Source: Bacteroidota bacterium
Lineage (GTDB): Bacteria; Bacteroidota; Ignavibacteria; UBA10030; UBA6906
Length of the DNA stretch: 64,000 bases
Assembly: GCA_035687895.1 (NCBI GenBank)
Contig: DASRUE010000044.1
Coordinates: forward strand, 3,555-67,554
Direction of reading: 5' to 3'
In this document: positions 1-10,309 of the stretch, in pieces
Position numbering within the stretch: the first letter of the stretch is position 1
Layout of the letters: every line of letters begins with the position of its first letter
The notes under the pieces: model-generated
Database searches by the model: none
Told to the model about the DNA's origin: nothing
The model's input: only the letters and a program-made list of their open reading frames with translations
Program-made: the position numbers and the translations under genes

Positions 1-361
1 GCCCGTAATTCGGAATCAATGTGTATCCGTTCCTTTTGTACAGTCCAATAGCTTCCGGCTGTTTTTTCCCCGTCTCTAATACACACTTTGCATACGATAA
101 TTCGCTTGCCCAATGTTCCAGTTCAGAGAGGATTTTTGTGGCGATCCCCTTGTTTCTGCTCCCAGGCTCAACGTACATGCGTTTGATTTCCATTGTATTC
201 GTCCCATACTCTTTTATGGCTCCGCAACCCAACGGTTTTTCATTTTCATACGCGAGGACGACATACTTGATGTTGTCGATCGTATTGAATTGAGCGTAGA
301 AGGAATGCTCTTCACCGTCCCTTTGTGCAAGGTCCGCGTCAAGTAATTTCACAAGTTCCAT
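1..361 (-). CDS. GNAT family N-acetyltransferase (3' end runs off the window start)
   Basis: This ORF is absent from the ORF track because it has no stop inside the window. The reverse complement from ATG 361-359 reads MELVKLLDADLAQRDGEEHSFYAQFNTIDNIKYVVLAYENEKPLGCGAIKEYGTNTMEIKRMYVEPGSRNKGIATKILSELEHWASELSYAKCVLETGKKQPEAIGLYKRNGYTLIPNYG. It has the acetyl-CoA loop RNKGIATKIL and the YKRNGY tail typical of the GNAT fold. Confidence 0.8.
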   Translation of the reverse strand, partial: MELVKLLDADLAQRDGEEHSFYAQFNTIDNIKYVVLAYENEKPLGCGAIKEYGTNTMEIKRMYVEPGSRNKGIATKILSELEHWASELSYAKCVLETGKKQPEAIGLYKRNGYTLIPNYG

Positions 362-427
362 AAAATCGTGATTATCAGAATTGGTTCTGATGATGTCTAT
401 CATATCCGCTATCTATTCTCGGGTGAC

Positions 428-571
428 GCACAACGTGTGCGCAAACTACGGCACGCACTCCACGCTCTTTATGATTGCGTGCAGCGTGGGGCGAACTCTA
501 CTGAGTTCGCTCCAGTTGCTTTGACCGAGCCTTATCAAATTTTTGAGCGACGTAGTTTGTCGCTGTTATGC
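428..571 (-). mobile_element. attC-like recombination site of the 584..1141 cassette
   Basis: Window + strand: GCACAAC(428-434)-GTGT-GCG-CAAACTACG(442-450) ...100 nt... CGTAGTTTG(551-559)-T-CGC-T-GTTATGC(565-571). The site starts 12 nt after the TGA stop. The R box pairs 6/7 (G.T wobble on the - strand). The L stem is 3+9 bp with a bulged T, and the centre is structured (hairpin 491-510). Confidence 0.6.
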
Positions 572-583
572 GCAGCGCAAGGG

Positions 584-1141
584 TCAATTGTTATAGAGTG
601 TTCCCTTCTGATAAAGTGTGTGAACTCTGAACAGCGTTCGTTCGACGTCGCGTGCGCCAACTTTGTACTTATTGGCAAAGTATCTGAGAATCATCAGATA
701 CCGATACCACTGCTTGAAATCAAATCCCATTCCGTCAGCATTCGTCTTGACGGCACCCATTTTGTAAAGGAGTTGCCAAACTCGAATGTCAATGACACCG
801 TAACGTGTTGGATTGGTAAGCATCAGAATCGAAGATGCCATCGGGACACTGACGCCGTAGAGACTCGTGAGTTGAGACAGTTTCTCTTGCTCACTACGAG
901 TTGCGAACGCTGCTCTTGTAATGTTCTTGATCGTATCTGCACGGTTACGACGAATATGCTTAATCGCTCGCGGCGATTTCCACCGACAAACCTTCACTAA
1001 CTCGGGTTTGGTCAGATAACCCCGCTTTCTTGAACGAGACAATTCATCGATGACCCTCTGAGTGGGAGACCACTCCTTAGTAGAAAGATGAATTCCTATC
1101 AGATGCTGTAATCGTTTGTATGGAAGTTTCTTGAGTGGCAT
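584..1141 (-). CDS. helix-hairpin-helix protein, OGG/AGOG-like DNA-glycosylase fold (function unverified); gene cassette
   Basis: 185-aa ORF. It has the HhH-like motif LTSLYGVSVPMASSILMLTNPTRYGVIDIRVW, preceded by LTKPELVKVCRWKSPRAIKHIRRN. This pattern recalls small OGG-fold proteins. attC-like sites flank it on both sides. Confidence 0.6.
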   Translation of the reverse strand: MPLKKLPYKRLQHLIGIHLSTKEWSPTQRVIDELSRSRKRGYLTKPELVKVCRWKSPRAIKHIRRNRADTIKNITRAAFATRSEQEKLSQLTSLYGVSVPMASSILMLTNPTRYGVIDIRVWQLLYKMGAVKTNADGMGFDFKQWYRYLMILRYFANKYKVGARDVERTLFRVHTLYQKGTLYNN

Positions 1142-1165: not shown

Positions 1166-1298
1166 GCATAACGCGTGCAGGCATTACGCCGGTTGTTTTG
1201 CTGCTATGAACGACTCATTCTTTTTGCGGCAAAACAAATGGAGCGCCCACAATTGTTCTCTTACAAAAAATGGAACGTCGTAATGACTGCTGTTATGC
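1166..1298 (-). mobile_element. attC-like recombination site of the 1293..2312 cassette
   Basis: Window + strand: GCATAAC(1166-1172)-GCGT-GCAG-G-CATTACG(1182-1188) ...90 nt... CGTAATG(1279-1285)-A-CTGC-T-GTTATGC(1292-1298). The R box is a perfect 7 bp, the spacer is asymmetric, and the L stem is 4+7 bp. There is an inner 9-bp hairpin (1193-1201 / 1229-1237). The TAA stop of the ORF lies inside the R'' box. Confidence 0.65.
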
Positions 1299-2312
1299 GA
1301 CGTTTGCGGCAACATCATACTGTAATCTTGTTGTTAGTTCATTTTCGAATCGAGAAACAAAGGGAACTCTATCAATCACGTGGACTTCAAATCTTCTTCT
1401 TACATTGCCGCCCGTTTTGAGACCAAGATCTTCAGCCGTTGTGTAGGTTAGCAAGTTCGGAATTGGACCTAGGAATGCATCGGGAAGCTCATCACGCAGG
1501 CGAGCGAAAGGCAGTTTTTCAAGACTACAAATGATGAGCTTCTCCTTGATGATGCGTTTGGAGCTGAGTCCCACGGCAAAACCAATCTCTTCAAAGACCT
1601 TACTTCGGATGTGATAGTAATTTTGCATTATCGCCTGTAATCTTGCCTTGTGGAATTTCGAGCCGATGTAGAGTGTGGCGACAACAGACTCGTGCTTGTC
1701 ACGTTTAGATGCAACAATGGGAAATACTACGCCCTCAATCGGCTTCACTTCTCTGAGATTGATACGCCGAAGCGTTTTCTTTGAAACTGTAACCAGTTGT
1801 TCTATTCTCGTCCTTATAGGGAGAATGGAAAATGCTGAGGTGTCCCTTTTCTCCTGAAGTTTAGCCTCAACGCTTGCTTTGAGCGGTCGTGTGACATAAT
1901 TGATTCTGCGGAGCAAGCGCTTTTTAAAGGTTGAGTCATCGTGACTACGCCAAGTCACGATATTTTTCATCTGCAAATGGAAATGCACCCGCAGGTTGCC
2001 TTTTGGGTCATCGGTGCGTGGTTTAAGATGGTCCACACGGCAAGTGTATATAACGGGAATCGACCTCTCAGCAAAGCCAGCCTCATAGTAGACGGAAGGA
2101 CGAGCAAAAGATAGATCAGCAACGACAAAGTCAGCATCTAGGATTTCATTGATGATTCTGTTATTGAGATCGTCATTATGCTCAATTCTGATCATGCATC
2201 TGGGAATGACCTCTGCTCTATGCAGCGTCGGCAAAAGAGACTTCTTGAGCAGGAGTTCTGTCTGCTTATCACTGAAGGACATAGCCACAAAGCATTTGAG
2301 TTTACTGGACAT
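1293..2312 (-). CDS. nucleoside 2-deoxyribosyltransferase-like/TIR-like N-terminal domain protein with uncharacterised ~220-aa C-terminal domain; gene cassette
   Basis: 339-aa ORF. The N-terminus reads KCFVAMSFSD ... DADFVVADLS ... RPSVYYEAGFAERSIPVIY (Glu77), the signature pattern of the NDT/TIR-like Rossmannoid fold. I recognise nothing in the C-terminal two thirds. Confidence 0.6.
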   Translation of the reverse strand: MSSKLKCFVAMSFSDKQTELLLKKSLLPTLHRAEVIPRCMIRIEHNDDLNNRIINEILDADFVVADLSFARPSVYYEAGFAERSIPVIYTCRVDHLKPRTDDPKGNLRVHFHLQMKNIVTWRSHDDSTFKKRLLRRINYVTRPLKASVEAKLQEKRDTSAFSILPIRTRIEQLVTVSKKTLRRINLREVKPIEGVVFPIVASKRDKHESVVATLYIGSKFHKARLQAIMQNYYHIRSKVFEEIGFAVGLSSKRIIKEKLIICSLEKLPFARLRDELPDAFLGPIPNLLTYTTAEDLGLKTGGNVRRRFEVHVIDRVPFVSRFENELTTRLQYDVAANVA

Positions 2313-2337: not shown

Positions 2338-2359
2338 GTTGCCGCAAATGACGCATAAC
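2338..2359 (-). repeat. GTTATGC core (R'-type) plus 15-nt flank; inverted copy (20/22) of 1292..1313
   Basis: The reverse complement of 2338-2359 is GTTATGCGTCATTTGCGGCAAC, against GTTATGCGACGTTTGCGGCAAC at 1292-1313. It lies 40 nt upstream of the ATG of the 1293..2312 ORF and marks the 5' boundary of that cassette. Confidence 0.6.
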
Positions 2360-2520: not shown

Positions 2521-3486
2521 TCAATCCCTGCGTCTTAGAAGACAAAACAAATGATACCTTCCTCTTCGCAAATCGGAAGAAGCGAGCTTCTTCCGCAGAG
2601 CGTTCATTGCAACAAACCCCGGGACGTGCCTGATTGCCCGTCTCACAGTTCTTTTCCAGCCTCCTGCGTGTGAGCCGGAGAGCCGGGCGACGTTCTCCAG
2701 TCGCGGTGTTCCCAGACTCTCCAAGTGTACAATTTCGAAACCCAGGTCTTGCGCAATGACACCGCATGTGCGGGAGGAAAGATACTGCATGTGCTCAAGA
2801 TCGACACGTAGCTGGACTGGATCGCGTTCCTCAAGGAGGAACGAACCGTTCGGCGTCCAGATGGAGAGAAGTCCGCCCGGCGCAAGGATGGAGCGTGCCT
2901 TCTTCAGGAGCGACAGCGGGTCGAGGGGATGCTCGATCAGGTCATGGAAGGTGATAAGGTCATACGGTTGGTCCGGGGTGAAGTCGAGGAGATCGAGTTG
3001 ATGGATTTCTGAAATGCCAAGGTGACTTCGTGCAAAATCAACAGCCTCCGGGTCGAGATCGATGCCGGCTACGCGCCCGCCGAGTTTTCTCAGCAGCACC
3101 ATCGTCAATCCGATCCCAAACCCGACGTCGAGTGTGCGGGCATTTGCAAGCCTCATGGTTGTGGCGATCTCACGTACTTTGACGTCCGTAAATGGATCCA
3201 TGGCCAGCATTTCCCTCAAGAGAGATGTATCATGCAGGTATTGCTGCATCTCCACCTTCCGATGGTTAGCATAATAGCGGGAGTATAGGTCGTTGAGCGC
3301 TTGAGCTGAAGGTGCGGGCGAGACGAAGAACGCTCCACAGGCGGAACAGGATCGCACGTGCAGGCGATCAGGGCGGATGAATTTCTCTTCCCCTTCGGAT
3401 GAACAGAAGGGGCATCGTCGCGGATGAAGGCGAGCATGGTCACACGGTGGGATACGGGCGTCAAGCGGAGGAAGGGGAGAGATCAT
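2521..3486 (-). CDS. class I SAM-dependent methyltransferase with N-terminal Cys4 zinc ribbon
   Basis: It has motif I LDVGFGIGL and the zinc ribbon CPFCSS...CSACG. The start is placed at the internal ATG (MISPLPP...) of the 2521..3645 ORF, so the exact start is uncertain. Confidence 0.75.
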   Translation of the reverse strand: MISPLPPLDARIPPCDHARLHPRRCPFCSSEGEEKFIRPDRLHVRSCSACGAFFVSPAPSAQALNDLYSRYYANHRKVEMQQYLHDTSLLREMLAMDPFTDVKVREIATTMRLANARTLDVGFGIGLTMVLLRKLGGRVAGIDLDPEAVDFARSHLGISEIHQLDLLDFTPDQPYDLITFHDLIEHPLDPLSLLKKARSILAPGGLLSIWTPNGSFLLEERDPVQLRVDLEHMQYLSSRTCGVIAQDLGFEIVHLESLGTPRLENVARLSGSHAGGWKRTVRRAIRHVPGFVAMNALRKKLASSDLRRGRYHLFCLLRRRD

Positions 3487-3669
3487 CGAAATCAAAAGCG
3501 TCCCATGGTTGCTGGTGCTGCAAAAGCTAATCAACCCCATGGAGATTATCAACTGGATTTCTCTTCTGGTACCCCACTTCTCGCCGTTTCTATTGCTTCT
3601 TGCAAAGAGAAGTGATAGAATTGTCCAGTATTCCGATGCATACATTCACAGAACAAGGAGAAAGCAGAC

Positions 3670-4276: not shown

Positions 4277-4386
4277 CAGGGGGTGTTTCTGTACCTTCAT
4301 CCCAGTTTCGGACGCACGTCAGTCTCCCCTGTGCTGAGGCGCAGGGCTCCCTTCCTTCCCAACGCACACTGTCCTGCAGTTCGGTT

Positions 4387-4932
4387 ATGGCTGCTGAAGC
4401 ACTTGCACCCGGTTCGTCAGTTCTGCCGTTTGGTCCGCTCCCCGGAGTTGACGCCAAGAACTATTCACTAACCGACTTCAGCACGGCCAATGTGCTGGTG
4501 GTGGTCTTTTCCTGCAACCACTGTCCGTACGTGCAGGCGTACGAAGAGAGAATGATCGCACTTCAGCTCAAGTACGGGCCGCGTGGTGTTCAACTCGTTG
4601 CAATCAACGCAAACGACACGGCAAATTATCCGGAAGACAATTTCGCGGGAATGGTGAAGCGGGCAAAACTGAAGGGGTTCCCTTTCCCCTATCTTCGTGA
4701 TGAGGACCAGTCTGTGGCCGAAGCTTTTGGCGCGACGCACACGCCGGAGTTTTTTGTGTTTGACAGGGAACGGCACCTTCGTTATCACGGGAAAATGGAC
4801 GACAATTATCGAGACCCGTCGGCGGTGAAGAGAAAGTACCTGCAGGAAGCCATCGAGGCCATACTCGCAGGAGAGACAATTGCGGAGCCGGAAACCCATT
4901 CCATCGGGTGCACCATCAAGTGGAAGTACTAG
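4387..4932 (+). CDS. thioredoxin-fold thiol-disulfide oxidoreductase (AhpC/TSA-redoxin family)
   Basis: It has the CxxC motif FSCNHCPYV and the length and pattern of redoxin-family proteins. Confidence 0.7.
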   Translation: MAAEALAPGSSVLPFGPLPGVDAKNYSLTDFSTANVLVVVFSCNHCPYVQAYEERMIALQLKYGPRGVQLVAINANDTANYPEDNFAGMVKRAKLKGFPFPYLRDEDQSVAEAFGATHTPEFFVFDRERHLRYHGKMDDNYRDPSAVKRKYLQEAIEAILAGETIAEPETHSIGCTIKWKY

Positions 4933-7831: not shown

Positions 7832-10309
7832 ATGAAGAAGCTTCTTGCCCTTTCGATTGTTGCAAGCCTGCTGCCGCTTGCTGCAAATGCGCAGCGCCTT
7901 CCCAAGGGAAAACTCAATCCCATCCGCGAACGCACGTTCGATGTTCTTCATTACAAAGCCAATCTCGAATTTGAATTTGCCAAAGGGCAAGTATTTGGCG
8001 AGGCAACAATTACATTTGTTCCGCTCCGACAAATAGACAGCATCTCGCTGGACGCCTACTATCTCAGCATCAAATCTGTGAGAGATGAGAAGATGAACTC
8101 ATCCCTTCCTTTTCGTTCGGGTGATAAATCAGTCAACATTAGATTTCCGAAAACCAAATCCGTCGGCGACACGATCAGGATGAGTATCGTGTACAATGCA
8201 ATTCCCCGTGCAGGAATGTACTTTCATTCTGATCCCGGGAATCCTCAGAAGTACATTGTCGATACGTACGGTGAAGGCGGGTTGCACGCCAACTGGCTTC
8301 CCATCTACAATGATGTGAACGACAAGTTCTCGACCGAAATGCTCATCACTGTGCCGCCTCCTTACACAGTTATCTCGAATGGAAAACTCATCGAGACGAT
8401 TATGAAAGGAGAAGGCTTCACAACATACCATTGGCTGCAAACGCTTCCGCACTCAAACTACCTGATCGCATTATACGTCGGGGATTTTGAGGAAGGCAAA
8501 CTCGCGCCTGCATTCGGCACGATTCCGATAAGTTATTGGGTGCCTCGGGGAAGACTGAATGAGGGCGCATACGCGTTTCGGAACACGACGAAGATGGTGG
8601 AGTTTTTCTCCGGCCGTTTCAACTACCGCTATCCGTGGGACAAGTACGACCAGATTGCGGTACCCGATTACTCCATCGGGGCGATGGAGCACACAGGTGT
8701 AACAGGTCATCGCGCCTGCGTGTTGCGGGATTCTACTGCGCCTTTGGATTTCGGGCCGCCGGATTTCACGCAATATTCCGGTGACTGGTCCGCTGAAGCA
8801 ACCATCTCGCACGAGCTTGCACACCATTGGTTCGGGGATAACCTCACGTGTCGCAATCTCAGCTACATCTGGCTGAACGAAAGTTTCGCAAGCTATTGTA
8901 TGATGTTGTGGGATGAGAAATCAGTCGGACGGGACCAGTTGTTGTTCGACGTGCAGCTCGCAAAGAAGCATTATCTGAACTATGTGAAGAAGGAACATAC
9001 TATTCGTCCGCTCGAGTATCAGAACTTCGATAACCCCGATATCATTTACAATGAAGAGCACACGTATCTTAAGGGCGCAATCATACTGCACTCGCTGAGA
9101 ACCGTTTTGGGCGACGAGCAGTTCTTTCGAGCGATGAGTTATTATCTGCACAAGCATGAATTCGGGAATGTTGTGAGCGATGATCTGAAGATTGCGATTC
9201 AAGAAGCGACGGGAGAAAACATTGACTGGTTCTTCAAACAATGGATTACGGGCGCCGGACATCCGCAGTTGGAGGTGAGCTACAAATTTGTCCCCGAACG
9301 AAAGTGCATTGACCTTTCGGTGAAACAAGTGCAGCCCATCGTTGAAGGACAAGGGTTGTTTACGTTCCCTGTTGTGGTAACGATTGCAACGCGGGACAAG
9401 ACCTGGAATGAGAAAGTCCTGGTGAAAGAAGAGAGCGTGCATTTTGTTTTGAAGTGCGACGAGAAACCGTTGATGGTAAGCTTTGATGGTGAGGGCAGCC
9501 TTGTCGCTGAAGCCTCGTTTGAAAAAGAGGTTGATGAACTTGCATATCAGGCAACGCACGATGCGCTGCCCGGCAGGTTGTGGTCGATGCGACAGCTGGC
9601 AGAGAAGTTCCCGACCGATGAAGCAACTCTCGAAACACTCTCGAATATTATCTCAACACCGATCTTCTGGGCAGATGCGGCTGAAGCAGCCGGGTTGCTT
9701 GGTGATGTGCGGACCGATGCAACAATGAAAACAACGCGTCAGGCTTTGGCATCTCCCGACTATCGCGTTCGCAAAAGTGCGGTGCTTGGAATGACGACGT
9801 TTGGGGGGGCAGCAAAGGACATGCTGCAGGAGATTGTACAAAATGATTCTCATGCCGATGTTGTGGCAACAGCCATTGTCGCGCTTGCCAAAGTGGACAA
9901 GAAGCTTGACATTCATGCTATCGAAAAACAGATAGCTCGCAAAGCTTGGTATGACGAGATGGCGATAGCATGTTTGAAGGCGTTTGCGGAATTGAAGAAC
10001 CCTGCCGCTGTCGGTATGATTAGACAATACGCGGGAGGCAGCTACAACCAATATGTTCGCGAAGCGGCGATTTTTGCGTGGAGCGAATGTTCTCCGGGCG
10101 ATAAAGACCTCCACAAAATGTTATGTGAGCTTGCACGCAAGGCAACACTTCGACTGCAGCAAAAAGCAATTGACTTGCTCGGCGATTTGTATGCGATGGA
10201 CGGAGTTCCGACCCTTGAAGAACTTGTAAAATTGGATTTTGATGCAAACGTAACCGCTGACGCGAAGGATGCGTTGGAGAAAATACGGCGTGTTCATACT
10301 CGTGACTAA
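7832..10309 (+). CDS. M1 family zinc aminopeptidase with C-terminal HEAT-like repeats
   Basis: It has a signal peptide, a GAMEH exopeptidase motif, HELAHHWFG (HExxH) and WLNESFA (third zinc ligand). Confidence 0.9.
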   Translation: MKKLLALSIVASLLPLAANAQRLPKGKLNPIRERTFDVLHYKANLEFEFAKGQVFGEATITFVPLRQIDSISLDAYYLSIKSVRDEKMNSSLPFRSGDKSVNIRFPKTKSVGDTIRMSIVYNAIPRAGMYFHSDPGNPQKYIVDTYGEGGLHANWLPIYNDVNDKFSTEMLITVPPPYTVISNGKLIETIMKGEGFTTYHWLQTLPHSNYLIALYVGDFEEGKLAPAFGTIPISYWVPRGRLNEGAYAFRNTTKMVEFFSGRFNYRYPWDKYDQIAVPDYSIGAMEHTGVTGHRACVLRDSTAPLDFGPPDFTQYSGDWSAEATISHELAHHWFGDNLTCRNLSYIWLNESFASYCMMLWDEKSVGRDQLLFDVQLAKKHYLNYVKKEHTIRPLEYQNFDNPDIIYNEEHTYLKGAIILHSLRTVLGDEQFFRAMSYYLHKHEFGNVVSDDLKIAIQEATGENIDWFFKQWITGAGHPQLEVSYKFVPERKCIDLSVKQVQPIVEGQGLFTFPVVVTIATRDKTWNEKVLVKEESVHFVLKCDEKPLMVSFDGEGSLVAEASFEKEVDELAYQATHDALPGRLWSMRQLAEKFPTDEATLETLSNIISTPIFWADAAEAAGLLGDVRTDATMKTTRQALASPDYRVRKSAVLGMTTFGGAAKDMLQEIVQNDSHADVVATAIVALAKVDKKLDIHAIEKQIARKAWYDEMAIACLKAFAELKNPAAVGMIRQYAGGSYNQYVREAAIFAWSECSPGDKDLHKMLCELARKATLRLQQKAIDLLGDLYAMDGVPTLEELVKLDFDANVTADAKDALEKIRRVHTRD

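Follow-up and report, generated by a model that had tools for sequence, protein, structure and literature searches.

A mobile integron cassette gene for a two-module protein with an NDT/TIR-like domain and an orphan C-terminal domain: a candidate single-gene defence system

The window analysed here is a 64,000-nucleotide stretch of contig DASRUE010000044.1 (positions 3,555 to 67,554 of the forward strand) in GenBank assembly GCA_035687895.1 of a Bacteroidota bacterium from the Ignavibacteria, and near its left end it carries, on the minus strand, a self-contained, horizontally mobile gene encoding a two-module protein of 339 amino acids. With attC sites on either side, the gene is a genuine integron cassette. 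The first module of its product, an N-terminal domain together with the conserved first helix of a helical stalk, is by fold and by an intact glutamate (Glu77) predicted to be a catalytic domain of the N-glycosidase type, within the superfamily that holds nucleoside 2'-deoxyribosyltransferases (NDTs) and TIR domains. The second module begins at about residue 149, comprises the end of the first stalk helix, the second helix and an alpha/beta domain, and is a rapidly diversifying orphan module; its sensor-like C-terminal domain is the most interesting part of the protein. At about even confidence, the gene can be read as a one-gene system against phages or mobile elements, built as a sensor-fused effector, which would act by switching on an N-glycosidase, and this functional reading is plausible and was somewhat strengthened by the comparisons described below.

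The gene and its predicted catalytic domain

The open reading frame (ORF) is a real gene, since 284 database proteins match its product at E<=1e-3 in a search of 5.8 billion proteins. These are metagenomic homologs, the nearest of which share 79%, 77%, 53% and 41% identity, and three further contigs, assembled from other samples or runs, encode the identical protein. An earlier reading, made from the sequence alone, had identified the same ORF and quoted three motifs from it, KCFVAMSFSD, DADFVVADLS and RPSVYYEAGFAERSIPVIY, all of which are present in the minus-strand translation. Over the whole window no RNA family was matched in Rfam at gathering thresholds (no tRNA-like, riboswitch or rRNA match), and a scan for promoters and terminators around the cassette returned sites no more numerous than expected by chance. 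The parts of the gene are as follows.

1293..2312, minus strand: complete ORF, 339 amino acids, ATG at 2312 and TAA at 1293-1295, encoding an NDT/TIR-like domain, a helical stalk and an orphan C-terminal domain
1938..2312, minus strand: N-terminal alpha/beta domain, residues 1-125, predicted from an AlphaFold2 model, Foldseek against the PDB, a profile against the PDB (2a0k), PF05014 matches in 22 of 38 relatives and two alignments
2082..2084, minus strand: codon of Glu77 ("ctc" on the plus strand, read as GAG), the predicted catalytic nucleophile/acid, invariant and aligned to the Glu of GTAFEVG in Trypanosoma brucei NDT
1764..1937, minus strand: helical hairpin or "stalk", residues 126-183 (helices 127-162 and 166-183), predicted from the AlphaFold2 model and alignment
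1293..1763, minus strand: C-terminal alpha/beta domain, residues 184-339, of order beta-beta-alpha-beta-alpha-beta-beta-alpha, fast-evolving

An AlphaFold2 model of the full protein built on 38 relatives (pLDDT 85.5, pTM 0.74) falls into three parts, namely a beta-alpha domain with strands at residues 5-10, 35-39, 62-66, 87-92 and 118-121, the two long helices, and a second alpha/beta domain at about 186-335. When the N-terminal domain was compared with the PDB by Foldseek, the top match was the NDT of Chroococcidiopsis (8pqr, E 2.5e-4), followed by human DNPH1, including its glycosyl-enzyme intermediate (8qhr), and by the CMP/hmCMP N-glycosidases MilB and BcmB. TIR domains ranked below NDT and DNPH1, with RUN1 (7rx1) at E 6.9e-3 and a Bacillus cereus TIR (8fz9) at E 8.7e-3. 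All of these matches have a probability of ~1 and target-normalised TM-scores between 0.5 and 0.7, those of DNPH1, MilB and BcmB lying at 0.55-0.70 versus ~0.53 for NDT and ~0.49 for TIR.

Comparisons at the level of sequence profiles point in the same direction. A profile of 34 N-terminal domains matches T. brucei NDT (2a0k) at E 2.3e-4 and Leishmania NDT (6qai) at E 0.03, and in the alignment to 2a0k the NDT segment IADLS...GTAFEVG stands opposite IADLTYARPSVYFEAG (IADLT..SVYFEAG), so that Asp66 aligns with the Asp of IADLS and Glu77 with the nucleophilic Glu of GTAFEVG. Pfam family PF05014 is matched below threshold by 22 of the 38 relatives at E<=0.1 (best 2.7e-6), with a best score of 27.9 bits against a gathering cut-off of 28.8, and TIR_2 by four of them (best E 0.002). 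A phmmer search of the whole protein against the PDB gave a single match, to ChREBP, which was judged a chance match. Because Foldseek, the family profile and the PF05014 matches of relatives agree, the N-terminal domain is assigned to the NDT/DNPH1/MilB/TIR superfamily (Pfam clan Nribosyltransf), an assignment that rests on sequence profiles and a structural model, and because the scores stay below the gathering threshold it is best described as a new family within that superfamily and not as a member of PF05014. The NDT/TIR-like Rossmannoid fold proposed in the sequence-only reading is thus supported, as is its choice of Glu77 as the conserved glutamate; its N-terminal module of ~110 residues does exist, but the alpha/beta domain extends to ~125 and is followed by a strongly conserved helix.

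Residues C7, F8, D66, R71, P72, S73, Y75, E77, A78, G79, P86, H95, H110, F111 and W121 are invariant in the N-terminal domain, and D102 is invariant among the 38 relatives and nearly so among the 34 N-terminal domains. In the model Glu77 sits on the helix that follows strand beta3, and Asp66 closes that strand. The invariant R71-P72-S73 ahead of the predicted catalytic helix appears to resemble the phosphate-binding "PS" loop of DNPH1/Rcl. The segment of residues 92-121 (R92.DH95...D102..GN.RVH110F111D) may form a mobile lid, as it is family-specific and modelled with low confidence.

The stalk and the orphan C-terminal domain

In the AlphaFold2 model the stalk is a long helical hairpin of a kind suited to oligomerisation, and its first helix is strongly conserved, with L133, P143 and F161 invariant and F129 and R136 present in 97%. 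Mean pairwise identity is 57% over residues 1-125, 29% over residues 126-183 and 18% over residues 184-335, that is, the C-terminal module evolves ~3 times faster than the N-terminal domain. Modelled alone, the C-terminal domain was predicted with good scores (pLDDT 84.8, pTM 0.81), and residues C262, S263, R271, P277, H311 and D314 are semi-conserved in it.

The C-terminal domain has no Pfam match and no match in the PDB at E<1e-3 by Foldseek, and nothing with a TM-score above 0.4 was returned by Foldseek from either the PDB or the BFVD viral structures; a single match in the viral library at E 4.5e-4 (TM 0.29, rmsd 14.5) was unconvincing. The best of the weak PDB matches are McrC (6hz4, E 0.015, TM 0.36) and HamA (8vxy, E 0.037), and these are followed by Zip2-Spo16, R.BspD6I, Cap4 and XisH in the PDB and by herpesvirus UL24 among the viral structures, all of which have restriction-endonuclease-like folds. 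Identity as a PD-(D/E)xK nuclease was considered and rejected, the scores being too weak and no D...(D/E)xK motif conserved. Foldseek gave no significant match to a SAVED or CARF domain, with Cap4 (6wam) at E 0.5. The domain is therefore best treated as an orphan with a weak restriction-endonuclease-like lead. The sequence-only reading had called the C-terminal domain novel and had found that residues 120-339 matched nothing, which holds for known families and structures, but the region is not featureless, as it resolves into the hairpin of residues 127-183 and an alpha/beta domain of residues 184-335.

A profile of the C-terminal domain searched against 1.84 billion cluster representatives retrieved 276 proteins (clusters at 50% identity, E<=1e-3), nearly all of them 320-440 residues in length and carrying the domain at about residues 190-340. 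When all proteins gathered by then were checked with hidden Markov models, 185 carried both the N- and C-terminal domains, 51 the C-terminal domain only (50 of these fragment-like) and 12 the N-terminal domain only; many of the fragment-like sequences begin inside the N-terminal domain or the stalk.

The single full-length exception, P0164 (372 amino acids), carries the C-terminal module behind an HNH nuclease in place of the NDT-like domain. Its residues 147-359 align to family residues 149-339 (hhalign probability 99%, E 3e-18), and its N terminus holds an HNH nuclease whose relatives include 9om4 (E 8e-8) and the HNH domain of Cap5 (7rwk, E 2e-4). The exchange is, as judged from sequence, real in this one protein but rare: among the best 119 matches to P0164, which are mostly driven by the HNH domain, there was no further fusion of an HNH domain to this C-terminal module. 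HNH domains of the P0164 type have 1544 matches in the database and are elsewhere fused to NB-ARC, NACHT and AAA modules. As a separate observation, the N-terminal domain of P0164 and its homologs P0274, P0278 and P0306 is a Cap5-like HNH domain with no Pfam match of its own and more than 1500 relatives, and it appears to be a widespread effector domain of STAND-type systems that has escaped annotation.

The cassette and the distribution of relatives

An integron cassette was recognised as an ORF followed by an imperfect palindrome of 55-150 nt that is bounded by an inverse core (..AAC) and a core (GTT....) and folds as single-stranded DNA. Three cassettes were identified at the left end of the window.

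1166..1298, minus strand: attC of the target cassette, 133 nt, GCATAAC...GTTATGC, overlapping the stop codon; DNA fold of -29.4 kcal/mol, z -4.76 on the plus (bottom) strand
2353..2359, minus strand: GTTATGC core (R') of the preceding recombination site, the 5' cassette boundary, 41 nt upstream of the start codon
1172..2358, minus strand: target cassette between two G|TT crossover points, 1187 bp, placed from the cores and a homology breakpoint
428..1141, minus strand: next cassette, a 185-residue ORF (584-1141) with its attC (428-571, fold z -4.63)
1..403, minus strand: third cassette, for a GNAT acetyltransferase that the window edge truncates (complete gene at 4309-4761 of the longer contig L001)

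Both palindromes are bounded by GCATAAC and by GTTATGC or GTTGTGC, and both fold far better than shuffled controls. The more stable folded strand is in both cases the complement of the coding strand, and a more stable bottom strand is the usual pattern of attC sites. Inverted repeats of 37 nt (1277-1313 and 2338-2374) relate the surroundings of the upstream core to the 3' end of the ORF, as they should if both ends contribute to a single attC once the cassette is an excised circle. The homolog P0002 (79% identical, contig L095) has the same GTTATGC core and nearly identical bases for the next ~20 positions, and upstream of the core the two sequences are different and poorly alignable; a homology breakpoint placed at the core is what cassette insertion at the G|TT crossover leaves behind. 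The stand-alone mobile cassette proposed in the sequence-only reading is thus borne out by the attC folds, the core sites and this breakpoint. In base composition the cassette region (1-2312) has ~45% G+C, versus ~54% to its right and in the flanks.

No integron integrase (IntI) or attI site accompanies the cassettes, as no IntI-like ORF was found in the window or in contig L001, within ~10 kb of the array, and the upstream site (2330-2400) is short and not significantly structured in single-strand folding. The cassettes thus amount to a small CALIN-like cluster of three that lacks an integrase and in L001 lies between a methyltransferase gene on one side and a rhomboid protease gene on the other.

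Some details of the cluster were noted in passing. The 185-residue cassette protein has faint matches only (PF21790, E 0.075; NF053634, E 0.012, OGG-like and monofunctional DNA glycosylase) and might be a helix-hairpin-helix, DNA glycosylase-like protein. The GNAT cassette is followed, just outside the window on its left (L001 4771-4788), by only an 18-nt palindrome, GCACAACaagaGTTGTGC; this resembles an attC stripped down to its two core sites, and it marks the end of the three-cassette cluster beside the rhomboid protease gene. At the right boundary (2330-2520) the GTTATGC core follows a short, weakly palindromic sequence with no integrase or attI-like context, and the flanking gene (2521-3645, minus strand) encodes a class I S-adenosylmethionine-dependent methyltransferase whose N-terminal segment is zinc-ribbon-like; a secondary genomic site may have received the cassettes.

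Relatives of the gene were found at 90 loci in GTDB (one genome per species), all in metagenome-assembled genomes (MAGs) and spread over more than 10 phyla, including Acidobacteriota, Chloroflexota, Planctomycetota, Verrucomicrobiota, Ignavibacteria, Bacteroidota, Nitrospirota, Desulfobacterota, Gemmatimonadota, Armatimonadota, Spirochaetota and others. The attC detector applied to these loci was home-made and, when relaxed, produced many false positives; with strict settings it placed a site directly downstream of the gene in only three loci, one of them the window's own contig, and manual reading added two more. In one of these (L085) the homolog P0005 (41% identity) is flanked by GTTAGGT and ACCTAAC...GTTAGAC and followed by small same-strand ORFs among canonical GTTAGGC sites. 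In the other (L028) a homolog of 34% identity is flanked by GTTAGGC and GCCTAAC...GTTAGAC and an ORF with 53% identity to IntI1 (E 1e-92) is found 4 kb away. With so few sites detected, much of the family may lie outside integrons. An Ignavibacteria MAG (L067) holds, ~1.3 kb downstream of its homolog, four palindromes CCTAAAC...GTTTAGG of 109-142 nt that start at 8224, 8406, 8588 and 9033 (span 8224-9141) and could be an attC array devoid of ORFs or belong to some other repeat family.

ORFs up to 4 kb away at ~80 loci were compared all against all, and no neighbouring ORF family occurred in more than three of these loci; this lack of a conserved neighbour, together with the solitary cassette, argues for the autonomy of the gene. 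The most recurrent neighbours were GNAT acetyltransferases (three loci) and an aldehyde dehydrogenase upstream of the gene (three loci). The former are homologous 172-residue proteins (L004 5480-5998, L005 252-770 and L075 1837-2355, in MAGs of Vicinamibacterales, Blastocatellia and Gemmatimonadales) whose genes end 3-39 nt before the NDT-like gene, with which they may form a two-gene operon in that subclade. A general partnership with GNAT proteins was rejected, as these three are unrelated to the GNAT cassette of the window.

When the 134 nearest ORFs of at least 150 residues were searched with PADLOC and Pfam, they included GajA (2), DrmMI (2), type I/IIG methylases (2-3), TIR_2 (2), AbiEii-like AAA_21 (2) and mad2 (4), and one relative adjoins MazEF and DUF433/DUF5615 pairs. 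The other contexts are runs of small ORFs of no known function or stress and detoxification genes (GNAT, glyoxalase, DinB, isochorismatase). No homolog was found in phage genomes, and plasmids yielded only distant relatives of the N-terminal domain with a different architecture, in Bacillus megaplasmids. These are 317-residue proteins annotated as nucleoside 2-deoxyribosyltransferase on Bacillus mycoides plasmid pl395 (L091 6425-7378) and 14 similar Bacillus plasmids, in which the NDT-like domain is C-terminal and follows ~190 residues of no assigned function; the pl395 gene adjoins an ArpU-family phage regulator and an integrase in a prophage-like region, a different architecture of the same superfamily.

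Candidate function and its alternatives

Bacteria use nucleotide-cleaving enzyme domains to starve viruses, and the favoured reading places the window protein among such effectors. In this model the C-terminal module would recognise a cue derived from the invader, either protein or nucleic acid, and recognition would shift the oligomeric state of the protein through the helical stalk. The oligomeric change would then complete or open the active site of the N-terminal domain, which would cleave the N-glycosidic bond of an essential nucleotide and lead to growth arrest or abortive infection. The leading candidate substrate would be NAD+, by analogy with TIR domains, with DUF4062 (Swarozyc) and with what some reports describe for the NDT-like effectors of retron Eco1; the alternative would be a (deoxy)nucleoside monophosphate or an ATP-like nucleotide. 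Being a single ORF in a 1.2-kb cassette, the system would be movable between hosts by integron integrases.

Several known systems share parts of this design. Swarozyc (Swz) joins a DUF4062 TIR-like NADase domain to a helical stalk and an auxiliary domain, and its phage portal trigger and NAD+ substrate have been shown experimentally (bioRxiv 10.64898/2026.05.01.722283). Like Swz, the window protein is one polypeptide with an N-terminal TIR/NDT-superfamily domain bearing a catalytic Glu (predicted here), a helical stalk and a C-terminal domain, the last being required for function in Swz, and both spread horizontally and would act alone. Unlike Swz, neither the window protein nor any of its 38 relatives matches DUF4062 (PF13271), and the auxiliary domain of Swz is a helix-turn-helix/winged-helix domain whereas the C-terminal domain here is mixed alpha/beta. 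The NDT-like effector of retron Ec86 (Retron-Eco1), with catalytic residue E106 (bioRxiv 10.1101/2023.08.16.553469), offers a precedent for an NDT-like N-terminal lobe with a catalytic Glu as a toxic anti-phage effector whose activity depends on assembly state; it needs, however, an adjacent reverse transcriptase and msDNA, neither of which is conserved at the loci examined here or, for the RNA, detected by Rfam in the window, and it has no detectable sequence similarity to the family. Cap5 (HNH-SAVED) and other sensor-fused effectors of CBASS share the effector-then-sensor layout, and P0164 joins a Cap5-like HNH domain to the family's own C-terminal module, but this module is not detectably SAVED or CARF and no CD-NTase cyclase is found as a neighbour, which makes a second-messenger input unlikely. 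Lacking DUF4062, an adjacent reverse transcriptase or noncoding RNA, a cyclase neighbour and a SAVED domain, the protein belongs to none of these three families.

Closer in fold and sequence are the PF05014 enzymes NDT, DNPH1/Rcl and MilB/BcmB, which share the fold and the aligned catalytic Glu and preceding Asp and provide the best structural and sequence matches. The differences are an identity of 12-17%, scores below the gathering cut-off, the extra loop R92...H110F111D, an apparent Cys in place of a Tyr, the addition of a ~210-residue stalk and C-terminal module, and a mobile cassette as setting instead of salvage or antibiotic biosynthesis. As for the setting, integron cassettes are documented as stores of small defence systems (BRiCs; sedentary chromosomal integrons). 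The present gene resembles such cassettes in being a single small gene between attC sites and in belonging to a family found both inside and outside integrons, but the mobile-integron paper that was searched mentions no NDT- or TIR-like cassette, and the array here has no integrase close by.

A number of observations weigh against a defence function or weaken the case for it. The best structural matches of the N-terminal domain are metabolic enzymes (NDT, DNPH1, MilB) and not TIR NADases. The window protein itself has no match in Pfam or NCBIfam (none to PF05014 at E<=1), and PADLOC-DB 2.0 returned no significant match, only a marginal one to the TIR effector profile PDLC00733 (E 0.012, 12.4 bits). 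The Tyr that positions the catalytic Glu, Y7 in CtNDT and Y24 in DNPH1 (according to PDB titles), falls on invariant Cys7 when the 2a0k alignment is extended without gaps, and Cys7 apparently replaces this Glu-assisting Tyr, so that the chemistry could differ. Defence genes adjoin only a minority of homologs, the association with defence islands is weak, and the raw counts do not demonstrate an enrichment; the stress and detoxification contexts are equally typical of non-defence cassette cargo. By the crude detector most genome homologs lack an adjacent attC, and the HNH fusion was seen once, on a 1.5-kb contig without context. The pairing of sensor and effector put forward in the sequence-only reading therefore gains from the architecture, with its faster-evolving C-terminal module and one HNH fusion, and gains little from PADLOC or defence neighbours, given the marginal TIR match and the minority of loci concerned.

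Because the best structural matches are metabolic and several contexts are of the detoxification type, two alternatives retain some weight. The protein could be an ordinary metabolic enzyme carried as cassette cargo, an NDT or nucleotide N-hydrolase of salvage or detoxification with a C-terminal domain for regulation or oligomerisation, an explanation that is unlikely but deserves attention. Many relatives are named nucleoside 2-deoxyribosyltransferase by JGI pipelines, the best fold matches are salvage enzymes, and GNAT, glyoxalase, isochorismatase and DinB genes are frequent neighbours, besides the upstream aldehyde dehydrogenase. Yet the gene never lies inside a conserved nucleotide-metabolism operon, and the condition under which the sequence-only reading would have abandoned its own hypothesis, conserved metabolic operons around close homologs, was checked on the ~80 loci with a negative outcome; the distribution of the gene is patchy over the many phyla and confined to MAGs, the C-terminal domain of its product evolves very fast, and both the sub-threshold PF05014 score and the apparent loss of the NDT Tyr set it apart. 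Rather less probable is a non-abortive editor of the nucleotide pool, in which a DNPH1/MilB-like (deoxy)nucleoside monophosphate N-hydrolase would destroy phage-modified (5-hydroxymethyl-dCMP/-dUMP) or non-canonical nucleotides with its specificity or oligomerisation tuned by the C-terminal module, and would thereby stop the synthesis of phage DNA, or clean up the pool, while sparing the cell. This would fit the target-normalised TM-scores, which are highest for DNPH1 and MilB/BcmB (0.6-0.7), the presence in the Foldseek list of DNPH1 with 5hmdUMP and MilB with hmCMP, and the apparent likeness of R71-P72-S73 to the DNPH1 phosphate loop. On the other side, searches with the protein sequence and the N-terminal domain profile gave no match to DNPH1 or MilB, no phage-type specificity can be inferred, and the extreme divergence of the C-terminal module together with the HNH exchange points to the sensing of a trigger rather than to the tuning of a substrate.

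The remaining explanations are weaker. That the C-terminal domain is a degenerate restriction-endonuclease-like (PD-(D/E)xK-fold) module binding DNA or RNA, and guides the N-glycosidase to invader nucleic acid for base excision or an ADP-ribosylation-like modification, is very unlikely: such folds are the only recurring theme among its weak Foldseek matches, but these have TM-scores of ~0.3-0.39 and E>0.01, a long helix stands between beta2 and beta3 where the canonical alpha-beta-beta-beta-alpha-beta core has none, the D...(D/E)xK motif is not conserved, and no NDT-fold enzyme is known to act on polymeric DNA. A selfish function in addiction, as an array stabiliser or an inter-bacterial toxin, and not in immunity, is the most improbable of those weighed. 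Cassette arrays commonly carry toxin-antitoxin pairs, toxins with NADase or nucleotidase activity are known, and one homolog lies beside such pairs; but no small antitoxin or immunity gene is conserved next to the gene, which stands alone between attC sites, and the protein has no secretion signal or toxin-delivery domain.

A bolder extension of the sensor-fused effector reading, itself quite improbable, would make the stalk and C-terminal alpha/beta domain a new portable invader-sensing module that drives unrelated effectors (NDT/TIR-like in ~275 clusters, Cap5-like HNH in one), and the NDT-like domain a new enzymatic branch, with Cys for Tyr and a lid rich in His and Asp, whose substrate would not be NAD+ but, for example, a (modified) deoxynucleoside monophosphate. 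The result would be a cassette-mobile defence encoded by one gene, in which both trigger and chemistry are new.

The family is experimentally tractable, since it offers a single gene, a clear site for a catalytically dead mutant (E77) and a separable C-terminal module. Should the protein prove to be a salvage or detoxification enzyme, the finding would be a routine one. If it acts in defence, the nucleotide-depleting effectors of the TIR/NDT type would gain a compact single-gene system of 1.0 kb whose sensor domain is uncharacterised, and the finding would signify that the integron cassettes of uncultured soil and sediment phyla, and not only those of Vibrio and clinical integrons, circulate such systems. 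The orphan C-terminal domain is the most valuable part, and if it is an infection-sensing fold that can be reused with different effectors, it would be useful for understanding trigger recognition and for engineering.

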